Shown one piece after another: positions 8,177 to 44,924 of a DNA stretch of 49,939 nucleotides. The notes under the pieces are model-generated. The model was not told the origin of the DNA and ran no database searches. It worked only from the letters and a program-made list of their open reading frames with translations. Each line of letters opens with the position of its first letter. The stretch's first letter is position 1. The stretch comes from Nitrospirota bacterium (GTDB taxonomy: Bacteria; Nitrospirota; Thermodesulfovibrionia; UBA6902; BMS3Bbin08): NCBI GenBank assembly GCA_030637135.1, contig DAOVVO010000001.1, positions 1 through 49,939 of the forward strand, written 5' to 3'. The position numbers and the translations under genes are program-made.

Positions 8177-8203
8177 GTTTCTTGGTATCCTTAAGGTAGT
8201 AAG

Positions 8204-9196
8204 ATAAGGAGAACATTTACGGTTAAGCTCGAGTTAGATTTAAATGAGGGAAAAGACCTTTCGCAGGTATATGAAAGGTTTGATAAAAGTCTTAGAATTA
8301 TTGAAGAAGCCTTTGGCATAGAGGCCTCAATCAGGGGCAATAAGGTACTCCTTCAGGGGAAGGAAAAGTCTGTAAAGCGGGCACAAAAGCTTATTAAAGA
8401 ATTACAAACAATAAATTCAAATGGTTATATCCTTAATCCAGAGGATATTAAATATATAATAAAGTCTATTGACGATGCTGCTTTTGAGGACCCCTCACTA
8501 TCACTCAAGGAGTTTTTCTTCACTCATGTTCCTGTATCATCAAAAAAGAAATTTATAGTTCCAAGGTCTGAGACCCAAAAGAAGTATATCGAAACAATAA
8601 AGAAGTATGATATGGTTATCGGCATAGGTCCTGCTGGTACCGGAAAGACTTATCTTGCTATGGCAATGGCTATTAACGCCCTTTTAAAGAAACAGGTGAG
8701 CAGGATTATACTTGCAAGACCTGCTGTTGAAGCAGGAGAAAGACTCGGTTTCTTGCCCGGTGACTTATACGAAAAAGTAAATCCTTACTTAAAACCCCTT
8801 TATGATGCACTTTTTGATATGATGGAAACTGAGAAAGCGCACAAACTCATAGAACGCGGGGTTATAGAAATAGCACCACTTGCATTTATGAGAGGCAGAA
8901 CCTTAAATGATTCTTTTGTAATTCTTGATGAAGCCCAGAACACGACTTCAGAACAGATGAAAATGTATCTGACAAGATTAGGGTTTGACTCGAAAACCGT
9001 CATTACAGGGGATATAACCCAGATTGATCTTCCAACAGGGAAAACCTCGGGACTTATAGAAGCAGAAAAAATCTTGAAAAATATTAAAGAGTTGTGTTTT
9101 ATATATTTTACTGAAAAAGACGTGGTAAGACACAGGCTTGTTCAGCAGATAGTTAAGGCTTACGAGAGGTTTGAAGGTGACAGGAAGGAAAAATAA
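8204..9196 (+). CDS. phoH: PhoH-like ATPase; start codon uncertain (no in-frame ATG/GTG/TTG before codon 140)
   Basis: Walker A GPAGTGKTYLA, FVILDEAQN, ITGDITQIDLP. The frame is open from 8195 and encodes a typical PhoH N-domain (…LQGKEKSVKRAQKLIKEL…). Candidate starts are ATA at 8204 or ACG at 8219. Confidence 0.85.
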   Translation: MRRTFTVKLELDLNEGKDLSQVYERFDKSLRIIEEAFGIEASIRGNKVLLQGKEKSVKRAQKLIKELQTINSNGYILNPEDIKYIIKSIDDAAFEDPSLSLKEFFFTHVPVSSKKKFIVPRSETQKKYIETIKKYDMVIGIGPAGTGKTYLAMAMAINALLKKQVSRIILARPAVEAGERLGFLPGDLYEKVNPYLKPLYDALFDMMETEKAHKLIERGVIEIAPLAFMRGRTLNDSFVILDEAQNTTSEQMKMYLTRLGFDSKTVITGDITQIDLPTGKTSGLIEAEKILKNIKELCFIYFTEKDVVRHRLVQQIVKAYERFEGDRKEK

Positions 9197-21526: not shown

Positions 21527-22231
21527 ATGGAAAAGAAAGCACAATTATATGAAGGCAAGGCAAAAAAGCTTTTTGAGACATCTGATCCGGATCTGGTAAT
21601 CCAGTATTTCAAAGATGATGCTACTGCCTTTAATGCGCAGAAAAAAGGAACCATTAAAGACAAAGGGATTGTTAATAATAACATGTCTGCACGGCTATTT
21701 CGTCTGCTTGAGGAAGAGAGTATACCAACCCACTTTGTAAAACAGCTCAGCGACAGAGAGATGCTTGTAAAGAAATTAAAGATTCTTCCTGTCGAGGTCG
21801 TAGTTAGAAATATAATAGCAGGAAGTCTTGCAAAAAGACTCGGCATTGAAGAGGGAATACCCGCCCCTTTCCCGATAGTCGAATTTTACTATAAAAACGA
21901 CGCACTTGGAGATCCTCTGGTGACTGAAGACCATATCAGGGTTCTCGGCCTTGCAACAGCAGAGCAAGTAAGGGATATAAAAAACTATTCTCTCAGGATA
22001 AATGATGTCCTGATGAAATTTTTTGATGAAAGGGATATCCTGCTCGTTGATTTTAAACTCGAGTTTGGCATGCATAATAATGACCTGCTTCTTGGAGATG
22101 AGATAGCACCGGATACGTGCAGGCTCTGGGACAAAAAAAGCTTGGAAAAATTAGATAAAGACAGATTCCGGAGAGATTTAGGGAAAGTCGAAGAGGCATA
22201 TCAGGAAGTCCTGAAACGGGTGATGAAATAA
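21527..22231 (+). CDS. purC: Phosphoribosylaminoimidazole-succinocarboxamide synthase
   Basis: LYEGKAKKLF, VEVVVRN, DEIAPDTCRLWD, LDKDRFR. Confidence 0.94.
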   Translation: MEKKAQLYEGKAKKLFETSDPDLVIQYFKDDATAFNAQKKGTIKDKGIVNNNMSARLFRLLEEESIPTHFVKQLSDREMLVKKLKILPVEVVVRNIIAGSLAKRLGIEEGIPAPFPIVEFYYKNDALGDPLVTEDHIRVLGLATAEQVRDIKNYSLRINDVLMKFFDERDILLVDFKLEFGMHNNDLLLGDEIAPDTCRLWDKKSLEKLDKDRFRRDLGKVEEAYQEVLKRVMK

Positions 22232-22240
22232 TAGTTTTTT

Positions 22241-22471
22241 CTATATCAGCTTTTGTAGTTTTTCCTTTATCCTCTGGGATTTTGTCTTTCCGCCAAAAAG
22301 GAGTGCGGGTCCCATAATAAGCGGAATTAACCTTTGTATATCTTCAGATGTTATAGTATCAGGGGTTTTGCCTATCGCCTTGCACTTTTCTTTTACGATT
22401 ATACTGGATGTTATTTCTGACAGCTCGGCTTTTAAAATATCGTAAATCCGCTGGCCAAGGTCACTGCTCAT
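22241..22471 (-). CDS. Hypothetical small protein (76 aa), last gene of a 4-ORF minus-strand operon
   Basis: ORF whose start overlaps the stop of the upstream ORF (ATGA at 22468-22471). No family recognised. Confidence 0.5.
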   Translation of the reverse strand: MSSDLGQRIYDILKAELSEITSSIIVKEKCKAIGKTPDTITSEDIQRLIPLIMGPALLFGGKTKSQRIKEKLQKLI

Positions 22472-22794
22472 TTTTCAGTTATCCCAAATTCTTTTGCAAT
22501 ACTATTCAGTTTTTTTGCTGCAATAAATAACATAATATAAGCAATAGATATGAAAAGATATTCAGGATACTCCATAAATTCACCAATGGTTTTTTTCCAT
22601 TGAAATGCCTCCCTCAAAACATGCCAGAGTGAAAAAAGCATTAAAAAGAATATCGCGGGGATGAGATCAGTGGTAATTGTTTTTAACTCACTGTTTTCTG
22701 GAAATTTATTTTTTGCATTCATCACAAACAAAAAGGATATTATTCCTATGGTTATCATCACAATACCTAATATTGTTTCAAGTCCGAGTTCCAT
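22468..22794 (-). CDS. Hypothetical 3-TM membrane protein (108 aa)
   Basis: Three hydrophobic segments. AAGGAGAG Shine-Dalgarno site 6 nt upstream of the ATG. Confidence 0.55.
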   Translation of the reverse strand: MELGLETILGIVMITIGIISFLFVMNAKNKFPENSELKTITTDLIPAIFFLMLFSLWHVLREAFQWKKTIGEFMEYPEYLFISIAYIMLFIAAKKLNSIAKEFGITEK

Positions 22795-22838
22795 ATATCT
22801 CTCCTTTTTAGGTAGAATTTTGAACTTCTGACGAGGCC

Positions 22839-23093
22839 TTATTCGTTTTCAATCTTATAAACTAAATCGTGTTCCCGTACATAGTCTTTTACAGTTATAC
22901 CGATTACCTGACCTTTTCCTGCTTTTGTTACCTGTTTGTGTTCTATTTGCATTGATTCGATTTTTTGCTCGAAATCGGTTGTATGCCCCTTGATATGTAT
23001 GATATCTCCGATTTCCAGTTGATTACTTACATCTACGGCTGCCACCCCGATTGTTTTATAATAGTGAGTAATTTTCCCAGCCAGTACCTCCAT
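22839..23093 (-). CDS. Small beta-barrel protein resembling EF-Tu domain II (translation-factor-like, 84 aa)
   Basis: IGVAAVDV..L..GD.IHIKGHTTDFEQKIESMQIEH...GQVIGI.V pattern. GGAGG 7 nt upstream of the ATG. Confidence 0.65.
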   Translation of the reverse strand: MEVLAGKITHYYKTIGVAAVDVSNQLEIGDIIHIKGHTTDFEQKIESMQIEHKQVTKAGKGQVIGITVKDYVREHDLVYKIENE

Positions 23094-23110
23094 GACAGTA
23101 CCTCCTTGTT

Positions 23111-23257
23111 TTAGGAGTTATTATTTTTGGGGACTTCTTCGTCTTTCTCTTTATATACCTCTGTTATACTTGTAACTTTAATGCCAGCAGCCTGAAGTGC
23201 CTTCTGTATATCCATGGCTTTTGCATCCTGAACTTTAAGAATATAATTGTTTTTCAT
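23111..23257 (-). CDS. Unlisted 48-aa ORF (MKNNYILKVQDAKAMDIQKALQAAGIKVTSITEVYKEKDEEVPKNNNS)
   Basis: Translated by hand. GGAGGAGG lies 4 nt upstream of the ATG at 23257. The stop is 17 nt before the next ORF. It falls below the size cutoff of the supplied ORF track. Confidence 0.4.
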   Translation of the reverse strand: MKNNYILKVQDAKAMDIQKALQAAGIKVTSITEVYKEKDEEVPKNNNS

Positions 23258-23411
23258 ACATCCTCCTCCCTACAGCGAGAGAACAAATTCTTCAACACGC
23301 ATGTCATTGACTATTTTTTTTACTATTGTATCAGCGGTATTTTAACAAATCAAGAAATTAAAGCTTGATAACTATATAAAATTTATAAATATTTTTATAA
23401 AACAAGCGTTA

Positions 23412-23440
23412 TTGACAAAAGATGTATGCTATGTTATTTT
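23412..23440 (+). promoter_or_regulatory. Candidate promoter of the atp operon (TTGACA-17 nt-TATTTT)
   Basis: TTGACAAAA at 23412-23420 and TATTTT at 23435-23440. The same TTGACAAAA -35 form occurs at 40858 and 42518. Confidence 0.4.
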
Positions 23441-23510
23441 TTGAGAGTTTCCTGTATTTTTTAAACCCCTTTTGAGGATTCTATTTTCACGTGTTATGTG
23501 AGGAGTCTCA

Positions 23511-23930
23511 ATGTTAGAACTAAACGGATGGTTTTTTGTTCATCTCATAAATTTTTTAGTCCTGATTGTACTTTTAAATTACATACTTTTCAAACCTCTT
23601 TTGCGTACTTTATCAGAGAGAGAAGATCACATTAAGGGCGCTCTCAACAGTGCGGAAGCCATGAACATTGAAAAAGAAAATCAATTACGAGAAATAGAGG
23701 GGAAACTCACTGAAACAAGGGATAAGGCAAAAACAGTTTTTGAAAAGCTGAGCAGAGAAGGTCTTGCATCACAAAAAGAATTCGTCGAAAGAACTCAGAA
23801 AGATGCTGCGGAAATGACAAGAAAAGCCAGGGAGGATATCAAAAGAGAGGTTAAAAAAACAAAAGAGTCGATGAAGGGAGAAATTGAAGCCTTCTCAAAG
23901 ATGATCGTCGAAAAAATGGTCGGAGTATGA
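23511..23930 (+). CDS. atpF: F-type ATP synthase subunit b'
   Basis: One N-terminal TM helix plus a long charged helix. First gene of the atp cluster. Confidence 0.8.
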   Translation: MLELNGWFFVHLINFLVLIVLLNYILFKPLLRTLSEREDHIKGALNSAEAMNIEKENQLREIEGKLTETRDKAKTVFEKLSREGLASQKEFVERTQKDAAEMTRKAREDIKREVKKTKESMKGEIEAFSKMIVEKMVGV

Positions 23931-31285: not shown

Positions 31286-33796
31286 TTAATCTTTCTTTGG
31301 AGAACTCCCCCCGTTTCCGTGCTCCTCTTCGTTTTCCTCTTTTTCAACCACCCTGGCTATACTTCCTACTTTATCGTCATTAGCAAGGTTTATAAGTCGT
31401 ACCCCTTGGGTGCTTCTGCCGATAATGGATATATTCGATGCCTTTATCCGTATTAATTTACCACTGCTCGCAATAATTATTATTTCATCATCACCTGTTA
31501 CTTGGAGAACCCCGATAACCTTGCCATTTTTAGGCGTTATCTTTATCGTGTATACCCCTTTACCTCCTCTACTCTGAAGCCTGTATTCTTTCCCTTTTGT
31601 TCTCTTTCCAAAACCTTTTTCGGTTACGGTTAAGAGTGTGGATTCCTCATCAAGGACATCTACTGAAACAACCTCGTCATCCTTCCGGAGTTTTATTCCC
31701 CTTACGCCATGTGCAACTCTCCCCATTTCCCTTACACCTTTTTCATTAAACCTTATTGAAAGTCCCTGTTGTGTGCTCAGATTGATATCTTTTTTACCGT
31801 TCGTTATCCTTACCCCGACAAGTTCATCGCCATAGTCGATTTTGATAGCAGCTATCCCTTTACTTCTGGGATTGCTGTAGGCTTTAAGAGAGGTTTTTTT
31901 GACCACCCCTTTTTTAGTCGCCATAAACAGGTAAAGGTCTTCTTTAAATTCTTTAATTGGGAAAACAGCGGTTATTTTTTCTCCTTGTGAAAAGTGGAGA
32001 AGATTAATGATTGCTTTGCCCTTCGCTGCTCTGCCAGTTTCAGGAATTTGATACACCTTAAGCCAGTAAAGACGTCCAAGATTTGTAAAGAAAAGCACAT
32101 GGTCATGAGTTGAAGCAAGAAACAGATCCTCTACAAAATCCTCTTCTCTTGTCTCCATACCGAGAAGCCCTTTTCCGCCTCTCCGTTGGCTTCTGTAAAG
32201 GGTTAGAGAATTTCTCTTGATATAGCCCTGGTGAGAAATGGTTATTACCATATCCTCCTCTGATATCAGATCCTCAATTGTTAGTTCTTTTGATTCACCA
32301 GTTATTTCTGTACGTCTTTTGTCAGCATATTTTTTCTTTATGTCCAGCAGGTCATCCTTTATGATATTATCCACAAGTGCAGGGGTTGCAAGAATTGTCC
32401 TGAGTCGTTCGATCTCCTTTATAGTGTCCTCGTAGTCCCTAACTATTTTTTCCCTTTCTAAACCGGTAAGCCTCTGGAGTTTCATATCAAGAATTGCCTG
32501 TGCCTGAATCTTTGTCAGAGGGAAATTCTTCATTAAGGCTCCCAGAGCTTCTTCAGGAGCTTTTGATTTACGTATTAAGGTAATGATCTTGTCAAGGTTA
32601 TCAAGAGCAATTTTTAGACCTTCAAGGATATGGGCCTTTTCTTCAGCTTTTCTGAGCTCAAACTGTGTTCTTCTAACAACAACATCACGCCTGTGCTGTA
32701 AAAAAAGAGAAAGCAGCTCAACAAGATTTAGAACCCGTGGCTGACCGTTGACAATTGCGAGCATGATAATGCCAAAAGTAGTCTCCAGAGCAGTATGTTT
32801 GTAGAGCTGGTTGAGGATTATATCTGGAATTTCACCTCGTTTGACTTCCAGGACAACCCTTATTCCTTCTCTGTCAGATTCATCTCTCAGGTCAGAGAGA
32901 CCTTCTACTTTTTTAGCTCGCACAAGCTCTGCAATCTTTTCAATAAGTCGCGCCTTATTTACCTGATACGGTAATTCTGTGATTATTATGCTCTGCCCTG
33001 TACCAGACGGTACAGGGCAGCGCCCTGCACCGTCTGGTACAGGGTGCTGAGCTTTTGCATGTTCTTCAAATGTTACCTTCGCCCTAATCTTTATAAGACC
33101 CCTGCCGCTGTTATAAGCATCAATGATTCCTTTTCTCCCATGAATGGTGCTTCCCGTGGGGAAATCAGGTCCTTTAATCTTTTTCATTAAGTCCTTAACA
33201 TGTGTTTCCGGCTTTTCTAACATCATCACAAGCCCATCAACGATTTCTCCGAGATTATGAGGAGGGATATTTGTTGCCATTCCTACTGCTATGCCGGTTG
33301 AACCGTTAATAATGAGATTAGGAATTTTTGCAGGGAGGACAACAGGTTCTTCTGTGGTTTCATCAAAATTTGGTACAAAATCAACAGTTTCTTTGTCAAT
33401 GTCTGTGAGTATTTCCTCTGCGAGTTTTGTAAGTCGAGCTTCTGTGTAACGGTATGCTGCAGCAGGGTCTCCATCAACAGAACCGAAATTGCCCTGACCG
33501 TCAACGAGAACATAGCGCATGTTAAAGTCCTGGGCAAGCCTTACGAGAGCTTCATATACTGCGGAATCTCCATGTGGGTGGTACTTCTTGAGTACTTCAC
33601 CTACAACCCCTGCACATTTAGAAAACTTTTTACCGGGCACTAACCCTTCTCTCAGCATTGCATATAATATCCTGCGTTGAACCGGTTTGAGGCCGTCTCT
33701 TACATCAGGTAATGCCCTCCCCACGATTACACTCATTGCATAATCGAGGTATGATGTTTTCATTTCTTCTTCAATATTTACAGCCAATCGTGCCAT
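31286..33796 (-). CDS. gyrA: DNA gyrase subunit A
   Basis: [25 protein letters not shown] (catalytic Tyr), ELPYQVNK, C-terminal beta-pinwheel repeats. Confidence 0.97.
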
Positions 33797-33871: not shown

Positions 33872-36271
<2,400 letters not shown>

Positions 36272-36393: not shown

Positions 36394-37500
36394 TCAGATC
36401 CTCATAGGCATAATAACGCATAGATAACCTTCTTCTCCTCCTTCCCGAATGAGCGTAGGGCTCAGGGAGTCCTGAAATTCAAGCTGTACGGTTTCTCCTT
36501 CCATTGCCTGGATTGCATCCAAAAGGTAGCGGGCATTAAAACCTATCGAGATAGAATCTCCTTTATATTGAACTGCTATTTCTTCCCTTGCTTCACCGAT
36601 GTCCGGGTTAATGGAGATGAGTGTTGATGTGCCCTGCTCCAGGTCAAATCTTAGAGAGTTCGTTTTTTCCCTGCTCATTATGGAGGTTCTTCTCAGCGCC
36701 CTGGAAAAAGTGTCCCTCTCAAGGATTGCTTTTTTCTCATTGTCTTGAGGAATTACCTGTTCATAATTAGGATACGTTCCCTCTATAAGTCTTGAGGTCA
36801 GGATGATGTCGCCTACAATAAAAAAGATATGGTTTTTATTAAGCCCTATAGATAAATCACCTTCACGTTCTTCAAGTAACCTCTTTAATTCTACTGCTGC
36901 TTTTTTCGGTAATATTAATTTTTTTTCTTCGGATAATTTGCCATGTATGTCTTTTGTAATGAGTGCAAGTCTGTGTCCATCCGTACCAACAACTTTCAGC
37001 TCAATGGTTTTTTTCTTTGGACTGAAATGCAAGAGAAGACCGTTGAGAGTATATCTTGTATCACTATCACCTGTTGCATAAACAGTTTTCTCAATCATAT
37101 TTTTTAATGTTTCTGAACTTATGTTAAGTTCTTCTGTACGATTTACCTTTGGGAGTGTAGGGTATTCTTCTTCGGGGAGTCCCATTAACTTGAATGTGCT
37201 TTTTCCTGACGTGATTTTCAGCCAGTTGTTTTCCTGTGTCTCTAAGAGAATATCGTCTTCAACCTCTCTTGCTATCTCAAGGAGTTTCCTTGCCGGGATG
37301 CAAAGACTCCCTTTTTCACGGATTTCTGCTTTAAGGGGACCTATAAAAGCAATATCGAGATCAGTTGCTATAATAGATACCGACTTGTCAACTTTCAGCA
37401 AAAAATGACTGAGAATTGGCATTGTGGTTTTCTTTTCAACGATACCCTGAATGTTCTGTAATGTTTTTTGTATTTCTTCTCTATCTATCTTCAGTTTCAT
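36394..37500 (-). CDS. dnaN: DNA polymerase III beta sliding clamp
   Basis: MKLKIDREE..., ATDGHRLA-type VGTDGHRLAL, C-terminal IMPMRI. Confidence 0.95.
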   Translation of the reverse strand: MKLKIDREEIQKTLQNIQGIVEKKTTMPILSHFLLKVDKSVSIIATDLDIAFIGPLKAEIREKGSLCIPARKLLEIAREVEDDILLETQENNWLKITSGKSTFKLMGLPEEEYPTLPKVNRTEELNISSETLKNMIEKTVYATGDSDTRYTLNGLLLHFSPKKKTIELKVVGTDGHRLALITKDIHGKLSEEKKLILPKKAAVELKRLLEEREGDLSIGLNKNHIFFIVGDIILTSRLIEGTYPNYEQVIPQDNEKKAILERDTFSRALRRTSIMSREKTNSLRFDLEQGTSTLISINPDIGEAREEIAVQYKGDSISIGFNARYLLDAIQAMEGETVQLEFQDSLSPTLIREGGEEGYLCVIMPMRI

Positions 37501-37548: not shown

Positions 37549-38889
37549 TTACGCAAAACTTTTAATTTTTTTTAGCAGGTATTCAATCTTTTTGTTAAAA
37601 TCCTCGTCCTTCTTTCTCCGTTCCTCAACCTGCTTACAGGCATGTATAACTGTAGAGTGGTCTTTACCTCCAAAATTTTTACCGATATCAGAGAGCGATA
37701 ATTCTGTGAGAACCTTACTTAAATACATCGCAATCTGCCTTGGAAAGGCAATGTCCCTTGTTCTTTTCTTAGCCTTTATATCCTGCGGTTTGATTCTGAA
37801 ATACTCACAAACAGTTTTTTGAATAGACTCTATACCGAGGGGTCTTTCCTCATCGTGGATTAAATCTTTCAGAACATCTTTTGCCATTTAAACAGTAATG
37901 GTTCTCCCTGAAAGAGAGGAATATGCCCCGAGCCTTATCATGCATGCCTCAAGGTCTCTGATGTTTGTTTTTATCTTGCTCGCCAGGAAAAATGACACGT
38001 CAGAGGGAATATGTATGCCTTCAATTTCACATTTTTTCTCTAATATCGCCACTTTTGTTTCGATTTCTGGAATCTGAATATCAGCTATAAGTCCCATCCC
38101 GAATCGTGAACGAAGCCTCTCGGTAATAGGTGAAATATCCTTAGGCGGCCTGTCACTTGAGAACACAATCTGTTTATGTGAATTGTAAAGTGCATTAAAC
38201 GTATGGAATAACTCCTCTTGAGTGCCGCTTTTCCCTGCAATAAACTGAATATCGTCAATAAGAAGGATATCAAGGTTTCTGTACCTCTCTTTAAATTCCT
38301 CCATTTTATTGTTTCTCATTGAAAAAACGAATTCATTCGTGAACTGTTCAGCCGGCATATAGAGCAAGTTGGTATCACGTAATTTATCTATTATGAAGTT
38401 GCCGCATGCTTGCATAAGATGCGTTTTACCGAGGCCTACTCCGCCGTAAATAAAAAGAGGGTTATACGCTTTACCTGGAGATTCTGCAACTGCTATTGCC
38501 GCAGCGCGTGCAAACTGATTACTGGGACCTGTAACAAAGTTTTCAAACGTGTACTTTGGATTGAGGAAAATACCACGGCTCGCCAGTTTTACCCGTCTCT
38601 GTTCCCTATGTGTCTCTATCCTCCTGTGAGTAGAACTTTCTTTCTTTTCGAGGATTTTGAACTTGAGGTTTAACGGGTTCTTATAAAATTTTTCAAGGGT
38701 CTCAGTAATTAAACCGGGGTAGTGGTCCTCTAACCATTCCTTAAAAAACCTGTTTGGGACCTCAATAACGAGCTGTTGGTCCTGAATATTTAATAGTTTA
38801 AGGGGCTTAAACCAGAGTTCAGACGTCTGAGCTCCGACCTTTTCTTCTATAGCTTCAAGGGTTTTCCCTCATGCATCTTCTATCTTCAT
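37549..38889 (-). pseudogene. dnaA: dnaA interrupted by two in-frame stop codons (TGA 38869-38871, TAA 37888-37890), otherwise intact
   Basis: All three segments share one frame. Hand translation gives MKIEDA*GKTLEAIEEKV...ELWFKPL...VIEVPNRFFKEWLEDHY...GGVGLGKTHLMQA...LLIDDIQF...SSLSGRTITV*MAKDVLKDL...GKDHSTVIHA. Total 446 codons, a typical DnaA length. Confidence 0.9.
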
Positions 38890-39036
38890 TATTCTCTTGT
38901 TGTGAAAAAAGCTTGTGTGTTTCCTAACGGCAAGATAATAAAAGTTATAAACACCTGTTAATAAATTGTTGATAAATACCCTACGGGGTAATAGATGAGC
39001 CGTAGTATAGGGCATATAGAGTCGGCTCTATTATAC

Positions 39037-44114: not shown

Positions 44115-44924
44115 ATGGGTTTACTTGAACAATTCTCTCACTGGAATTTTTACCTTTTGGGCACCTATCCCAAGGGTGAGATTGGCGGACTCGCCCTGAA
44201 CATTATACTGGCAGCCCTTGCCTTATCTTTGAGTTTTATTTTTGGAGTCATGTTGGGCTATAGCAGGCTTTCCTGCCGAATGTATATCAAATACCCATGT
44301 GTTGCATATATAGAGATTATCCGGGCAACTCCGTTAATTTTGCTTATCTTCTGGTTTTACTTCTTCCTACCATATTTAGTGGGTGGAAACATTTCTATTT
44401 TCTGGAGCGCTGTAATTTCTCTTTGTGTATATGCCGCTGCCTATCAGGCTGAGATAGTCAGGGCAGGTATCCTGGCAATACCGAGGGGTCAGTTGGAAGC
44501 GGCATTGTCAACTGGAATGTCAAGACTTCAAGCTATGAAATCAGTGATATTACCTCAGGCATTTAAAATAATGATACCTTCATTTATGAGTTTTTTTGTA
44601 TCCCTGTTTAAAGACACCTCTGTAACTTACATTATCGGGGTTATTGAGCTCACGCAAACAGGAATCATTATAAGCCAGCGGCAGCCTGATAAAATGTTGT
44701 CTGCCTATTTAAGTATGGCAATTGGATATTTTGTCATATGCTATACCCTGTCTCACGTTGCCAGGAGGCTTGAGAAAAAGATTGGCATATATGACCTTGA
44801 GTCATACAGGCCTGACGCCTGCAGAGATGAATATATGCTGCTTCCCACCCACAAAACCGGTGATGAAGAAGAACATCCAAGCAGGATTTGTTCTCCCAAA
44901 CCAGAATTTAGGAAAGACCTGTAG
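44115..44924 (+). CDS. Amino acid ABC transporter permease, second subunit
   Basis: EIIRATPLILLIFWFYF, AYQAEIVRAGILAIPRGQLEAA, EAA-loop-type motifs. Confidence 0.88.
   Translation: MGLLEQFSHWNFYLLGTYPKGEIGGLALNIILAALALSLSFIFGVMLGYSRLSCRMYIKYPCVAYIEIIRATPLILLIFWFYFFLPYLVGGNISIFWSAVISLCVYAAAYQAEIVRAGILAIPRGQLEAALSTGMSRLQAMKSVILPQAFKIMIPSFMSFFVSLFKDTSVTYIIGVIELTQTGIIISQRQPDKMLSAYLSMAIGYFVICYTLSHVARRLEKKIGIYDLESYRPDACRDEYMLLPTHKTGDEEEHPSRICSPKPEFRKDL

Follow-up and report, generated by a model that had tools for sequence, protein, structure and literature searches.

The dnaA frame and its flanking features

The window, by which we mean the whole stretch of 49,939 nucleotides that was analysed, contains a single DnaA-like locus by tblastn, the minus-strand dnaA frame at 37549–38889, and no second initiator was found in the window by the same search. 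It is a single frame of 446 codons plus a TAA terminator that is broken solely by a TGA at codon 7 and a TAA at codon 334, the latter directly followed by the ATG of the invariant Met335. An earlier note on this DNA had described a 446-codon, single-frame DnaA with two in-frame stops, and translation, Pfam and the motifs bear this out; it had also stated that the frame has no frameshifts, and none were found in the dnaA of the window. The features of the region are as follows.

37549..38889, minus strand: dnaA frame, 446 codons plus TAA, all four DnaA domains, two in-frame stops
38869..38871, minus strand: TGA at codon 7, contig-private TGG>TGA (plus-strand C>T at 38869) at the invariant Trp of domain I
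37888..37890, minus strand: TAA at codon 334, contig-private GAA>TAA (plus-strand C>A at 37890) in the domain III lid / domain IV linker
37999, minus strand: third contig-private dnaA change, synonymous GAT>GAC at codon 297, between both stops
37888..38415, minus strand: residual ORF Met159–Val333, 175 aa, starting just past Walker A; the public call is the 156-aa P0164
37549..37887, minus strand: residual ORF Met335–Ala446, 112 aa, with the domain IV HTH; separate gene call P0127 on the public NCBI contig
36394..37500, minus strand: dnaN, intact, ends in TGA, protein identical to that of sister contig scaffold_523
33872..36268, minus strand: gyrB, intact, ends in TGA, P86Q in the DNGRGIP motif, an allele common to sister contig L095
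38945..38975, minus strand: three DnaA-box-like 9-mers, TTATCAACA, TTATTAACA and TGTTTATAA, with 11-nt phasing, 56–86 nt upstream of the dnaA ATG

The frame carries the motifs ELWFKPL, VIEVPNRFFKEWLEDHY, GGVGLGKTHL, LLIDDIQF and DHSTVIHA, and GLGKTHL, DDIQF and DHSTVIH are invariant columns in a 15-sequence alignment. Once the two stops are repaired, the protein matches DnaA_N (residues 5–65), Bac_DnaA (109–269), Hda_lid and Bac_DnaA_C (353–421) over the full profile lengths, with Pfam E-values of 3.2e-17 for PF11638, 6.5e-72 for PF00308 and 2.7e-32 for PF08299.

On the coding strand the stops correspond to G>A at codon 7 and G>T at codon 334, one substitution each. No ATG, GTG or TTG lies in frame between the TGA at codon 7 and Met159 (38415), which is the start of the middle ORF in the ORF listing, and the earlier note was right that the first Met available after the TGA falls behind Walker A. 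The first stop would leave a 6-residue peptide, with the next start codon beyond Walker A, and the second would remove the DNA-binding domain IV. Because that interval is devoid of start codons, dnaA as written on the contig cannot yield a functional DnaA, and judged as an uninterrupted full-length DnaA frame the locus falls short at both codon 7 (TGA) and codon 334 (TAA). Stop-creating changes make up 3.2–4.6% of all single-base changes in dnaA, and two of the three contig-private changes in the gene are stops (P about 0.003 under random substitution), which exceeds chance expectation.

The DnaA-box-like 9-mers belong to ~190 nt of sequence in which the stop-creating base is the sole difference from the 95%-ANI relative. 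To judge from this arrangement, the 38945–38975 region is probably an autoregulated dnaA promoter or a part of oriC. A strict DnaA-box scan of the whole window was uninformative, with 7 matches versus 15 expected by chance.

Codons 7 and 334 in relatives and sister contigs

The repaired window DnaA is 70–96% identical to the DnaA of Nitrospirota/Thermodesulfovibrionia MAGs. We scanned 80 related genome loci with 10-kb flanks, all with identities of at most 76% among the matches listed, and each of the 80 has one dnaA match within these flanks (again among the matches listed). Among the matches listed, position 7 is Trp in 79 of 79 relatives, in agreement with the earlier proposal that codon 7 was originally Trp and was converted by a single TGG>TGA change; position 334 is Glu in 38 of 80 and Asp in 32 of 80, and thus Glu or Asp in 70 of 80. 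The alignment with close relatives that the earlier note had proposed as a check gives W7 and E334 in all 14 of the 14 aligned close homologues, and the TAA at codon 334 is one step from GAA.

The same codons are found much closer to the window. Two JGI contigs (L001 and L002) that are syntenic with it at 95% nucleotide identity, in the order fdhD, small ORF, dnaA, dnaN, gyrB and gyrA, have TGG and GAA. Exact-protein look-ups further recovered sister contigs that are 99.6–99.9% identical to the window; some are NCBI records, and the others were assembled independently from neighbouring samples (ENA/SPIRE ZHAN22-2, SAMN18200491-497). Samples SAMN18200491-497 are Illumina metagenomes from reduced sediment layers of the Site-F cold seep in the South China Sea (PMC9357000). 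Both sites are covered by L083 (SAMN18200493, a 40-kb scaffold) and L095 (SAMN18200491), which read TGG and GAA, while L085 (SAMN18200497) covers codon 7 only and reads TGG, and L097 reads GAA at codon 334. The NCBI partial protein MCK5287326.1 (P0123) has W7 and E334, and a protein encoded on three ENA contigs (P0125) equals the repaired window DnaA at every residue.

The gene is thus intact in every other assembly covering the sites, comprising at least three cold-seep samples, the NCBI partial protein and the JGI contigs. After polarising, both stops are private to the window contig, with 3–4 other sequences backing each. We infer that the ancestral codons were TGG (Trp) at codon 7 and GAA (Glu) at codon 334. 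By these alignments both stops are shown to be recent, single-base and contig-private, and they belong neither to the genetic code, nor to the species, nor to the local population.

We also looked for traces of the stop alleles in public proteins. A collection of ~15 billion proteins has none of the fragments (48, 175 and 288 aa) that they would give rise to. The fragments of 112 aa (P0127) and 156 aa (P0164, ending at Val333) each occur solely on one NCBI contig of 49,939 nt, of which the window is the full length, and a search for fragments around residue 334 returned 100% identity only to these fragments of the contig itself. Since these two gene calls occur on the public contig, the TAA, at least, is present in the public NCBI record. 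Another 112-aa protein, P0126 on L097, was considered as an independent E334* allele and rejected, as it is caused by a scaffold N-gap and the codon is GAA.

Apart from the stops, dnaA differs from that of L001 by an ordinary set of substitutions. There are 31 synonymous and 17 non-synonymous codon differences (15 without the two stops), as against synonymous:non-synonymous counts of 21:18 for dnaN and 43:33 for gyrB, so that dnaA is no worse than its neighbours. All indels relative to L001 are intergenic, except one in-frame 27-nt indel in gyrA, and none is in dnaA. Where the window differs from the homologous protein P0001, its residue is mostly the family consensus. Nothing in these counts points to long-term decay, and dnaA is under purifying selection in the lineage.

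The neighbouring gyrase genes show strain variation of their own. At GyrB codon 86 (36010–36012, minus strand) DNGRGIQ replaces the ATP-pocket motif DNGRGIP, at a residue that is Pro in 73 of 73 relatives (among the matches listed) and that we take to be E. coli Pro79. P86Q and three further gyrB missense changes (D93V, A164T and T496A) seemed private to the window, yet all four are also on L095, which is from another sample; P86Q therefore really does segregate, although the residue is normally invariant and the enzyme essential. In gyrA, codons 257–262 and adjacent positions (33012–33045) form a cluster of strain differences, beside the 27-nt in-frame indel relative to L001.

Private changes and heterogeneity

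Private changes were counted where at least two other sequences give coverage, which amounts to 32 kb. The window has 22 of them, or 0.68 per kb (2 nonsense, 11 missense, 6 synonymous and 3 intergenic), while the sister assemblies have 0.15–1.4 per kb, their pooled missense:synonymous counts being 22:23. The ratio of non-synonymous (including stops) to synonymous private changes in the window is 13:6, an excess that is not significant. The 22 changes are transition-biased (14 transitions, 8 transversions), and no GC>AT bias or common motif or context was found among them. The spectrum of the window versus L001 is nearly symmetric, with 149 GC>AT and 119 AT>GC changes.

The symmetric spectrum and the lack of a shared context lead us to reject a general GC>AT or G>A bias and a methylation-motif error. 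The earlier note had suggested that a G-to-A error or mutational bias might link dnaA, phoH and an ABC permease. This idea is not supported: the second dnaA change is G>T, and there is no GC>AT bias. An error-prone contig is likewise not supported, in that the private-change rate is similar to, and not above, that of the sister assemblies. The other ~45 genes of the window are uninterrupted, with one C-run indel in a C-terminal tail. Private changes number 3 in the 1.3 kb of dnaA, whereas none falls in dnaN or in the 2.6 kb upstream of dnaA. With its ordinary private-change rate, its transition bias and the gyrB alleles that it shares with L095, the contig mostly mirrors genuine micro-diversity rather than noise; random consensus errors seem rare on it, and two of them in one gene would be unlikely.

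The earlier note had also listed phoH and an ABC permease as genes without canonical starts, and we examined both as companion lesions. The phoH gene (8195–9196, plus strand) encodes a complete PhoH domain (E = 1.2e-96) and indeed has no ATG, GTG or TTG in its first 139 codons. A Shine-Dalgarno AAGGAG at 8207–8212 is followed by an ACG at 8219, and on an NCBI sister contig the gene was called from an ATA at 8204, giving 330 aa. Not a single base of the start region differs in any of the relatives, even on contigs that match the window at only 95–97%, and phoH thus has a conserved non-canonical start and is not damaged. The permease genes have ATG starts after all: the first is a 223-aa call that is the same on sister contig L084. 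We therefore rejected phoH and the permease as companion lesions. In the second permease gene the window has CCC at 44894 versus CCCC in L084, so that the last ~10 residues differ (269 versus 265 aa).

Two further places in the window differ among strains. The 22200–23800 segment has a low GC content (0.35) and small minus-strand ORFs, whose sister-contig homologues have no Pfam annotation on record; left of 23762, L095 and the window have diverged completely, and another sister contig, L089, ends at 23781. The segment, which precedes the ATP synthase operon, has the look of an islet that varies between strains. At 315–986 on the minus strand lies an IS200/IS605-type Y1 transposase (PF01797, from the annotation of a sister contig), with a cluster of strain differences at 369–392.

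Signs of heterogeneity are found at dnaA itself. In the SAMN18200491 assembly two contigs, L084 and L095, end at 38871 and 38874, within dnaA codon 6/7, and their ends overlap by GCAT, 2–5 nt from the private base at 38869. This looks like a break of the assembly graph at that very site, and it hints that the sample is heterogeneous there or that reads are problematic at this position.

Disrupted dnaA genes also occur in other assemblies. One of the four JGI contigs of the 95%-ANI sister population, L098 (JGI 3300041077, Ga0452210_116584), has an 83-nt out-of-frame deletion in dnaA (at 1939–1943) just upstream of Walker A, and the gene is called there as fragments of 126 and 288 aa; L098 is 99.8% identical to L001 and L002, in which dnaA is intact. 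In a related MAG (MFD01872.bin.1.109, contig_111534; L056) both dnaA and gyrB are frameshifted, with split HSPs and stops inside the alignment. This pattern suggests indel errors, and from the MFD/contig_ naming the assembly is presumably a long-read (nanopore-type) one. The base rate of disrupted dnaA in public MAGs is about 1 in 80 among the matches listed.

Origin of the stops and comparison with known systems

If both stops were decoded, by read-through, suppressor tRNAs, selenocysteine insertion at the TGA or a variant code, a full-length DnaA would be made. The frame is perfect apart from the stops and its TGA stands at a Trp position, as it would under genetic code 4, but there is next to no chance that this explanation is correct. 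Both codons end adjacent conserved genes at the lengths of their relatives (TGA for dnaN and gyrB, TAA for gyrA and dnaA), and the terminators of open frames in the window are TAA in 28 cases, TGA in 16 and TAG in 10. Only dnaA is interrupted: when the window was scanned for adjacent segments in the same frame, no second conserved gene proved to be split by an in-frame stop, and the one candidate, atpH/atpA, was rejected as two separate genes. Strains 99.8% identical to the window have TGG and GAA, as do orthologues throughout the 95–99.9% range of identity, which speaks against programmed read-through or selenocysteine insertion. So does the RNA: structure in the 86 nt after each stop is not significant relative to shuffled sequence (z = −1.6 and +0.25), and the window contains no match to Rfam families and no tRNA genes. 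TAA is moreover less leaky than the other stop codons, and read-through at both stops together would be negligible. The normal use of TGA and TAA as terminators of the neighbouring genes, the lack of any other interrupted gene and the sense codons of close kin firmly rule out an alternative genetic code and conserved recoding, and the organism uses the standard code. Among the three explanations offered in the earlier note, recoding thus falls to the sense codons of near-identical strains, while error and a very recent pseudogene both stand. An older pseudogene, decaying in a lineage that no longer relies on DnaA or has substituted another initiator for it, as in some endosymbionts and cyanobacteria, could account for two inactivating lesions in the same gene, yet the evidence contradicts it. 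The gene has no frameshifts or other indels and no excess of non-synonymous change, its synonymous:non-synonymous ratio being like that of dnaN and gyrB; every invariant family residue is kept, the upstream DnaA boxes are conserved, and dnaA is intact in both the sister strains (99.8% identical) and the relatives at 95%.

We favour, with a probability of roughly 0.55, the explanation that the stops are an assembly artefact or a defective minority allele and do not represent the working gene of the replicating line. The locus is an ordinary dnaA, kept up by selection, and belongs to a species of Thermodesulfovibrionia (Nitrospirota) that lives in cold-seep sediment of the South China Sea; a single deposited contig carries two independent single-base substitutions in it, TGG>TGA (codon 7) and GAA>TAA (codon 334). 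These could be an artefact of consensus calling or path selection, strains being mixed in the sediment metagenome, or a defective dead-end allele caught by the assembler. DnaA is essential in nearly all bacteria, and a lineage with a broken dnaA should therefore not propagate. For this reason, and because the same-population assemblies spanning the sites are intact and the alleles have no independent record, we infer that no living dnaA-null lineage lies behind the stops, but an artefact or a non-viable allele. Against this speak the contig itself, which is clean but for the two stops and has a private rate within the sister range, the synonymous private change between the stops, as expected of a distinct haplotype, the contig ends at codon 6/7 in the SAMN18200491 assembly and the deletion on L098. 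They lend some substance to a real dnaA-null haplotype in living cells, a less likely but quite possible alternative, in which one strain would very recently have acquired both W7* and E334*. Such a haplotype might persist through DnaA supplied in trans, from other copies of an oligo- or polyploid genome or from a second dnaA, or through DnaA-independent initiation, and once the first stop was in place, the other stop and the synonymous change would have built up neutrally. In its favour are the otherwise high quality of the contig with its natural-looking private variants, the concentration of these in dnaA (three in 1.3 kb, two of them stops), the SAMN18200491 assembly break precisely at codon 6/7, the independent 83-nt deletion in the 95%-ANI sister population and the TAA in the public record. 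There is also a precedent, in that some polyploid cyanobacteria tolerate the loss of dnaA (PMC7198777). It is opposed by the intact gene in all other assemblies covering the sites, by the purifying selection on dnaA in the lineage, by the single dnaA match in each of the 80 related loci (10-kb flanks, among the matches listed) and by the lack of a second initiator in the window. Furthermore, neither stop allele occurs in any other record, and a null allele that does not replicate cannot reach assembly-level frequency.

A broader version of the null-haplotype explanation, in which sediment populations of the Thermodesulfovibrionia species complex maintain null-dnaA chromosomes in nature, at frequencies high enough to be assembled, strikes us as improbable. 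It would take W7*, E334* and the 83-nt deletion as three independent loss-of-function alleles of a gene that is conserved in the long term. If true, it would imply heterozygous polyploidy with trans-complementation, or DnaA-independent initiation in a free-living anaerobe.

The favoured explanation, an artefact or dead-end allele, would mean that an essential gene is wrongly represented on a public MAG contig. Such a dnaA will be cut into fragments by annotation pipelines, which has already happened here (P0127 and P0164). The case is also a worked example of how parallel assemblies of the same population can settle, without reads, whether a 'recoded essential gene' belongs to the lineage. Were the stops instead real majority alleles, a free-living sediment bacterium would tolerate the loss of DnaA, as is known so far mainly from polyploid cyanobacteria and reduced symbionts.

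Among known systems, those with stop reassignment (codes 4 and 25) or selenocysteine share with the window an in-frame TGA, here at a Trp position. The window is unlike them in that its TGA and TAA are ordinary terminators, only one gene is hit, relatives lack the stops and no recoding signal is present. Some reduced endosymbionts are DnaA-independent or dnaA-less. Taken at face value the window's dnaA is non-functional, which resembles the state of dnaA-less bacteria such as some polyploid cyanobacteria (PMC7198777); loss in such lineages is lineage-wide, whereas the examined relatives of the window keep dnaA and its boxes, with the exception of L098. There is a likeness, too, to the internal-stop 'pseudogenes' of MAGs, which are consensus or strain-mixture artefacts or rare alleles, as the lesions are isolated point changes, absent from parallel assemblies of the same population, in a gene otherwise under purifying selection; the L056 MAG likewise has a disrupted dnaA, and there gyrB as well. 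Unlike the usual cases of this kind, the lesions in the window are substitutions and not homopolymer indels, and two of them fall in one gene on a clean contig. With the canonical DnaA of the dnaA–dnaN–gyrB–gyrA origin cluster the locus shares the full set of domains, Walker A and B, DHSTVIHA, the synteny and the box-like repeats upstream, and it departs from it only in that the frame is broken by two nonsense substitutions, on this contig only. The feature is an ordinary gene with contig-level lesions.
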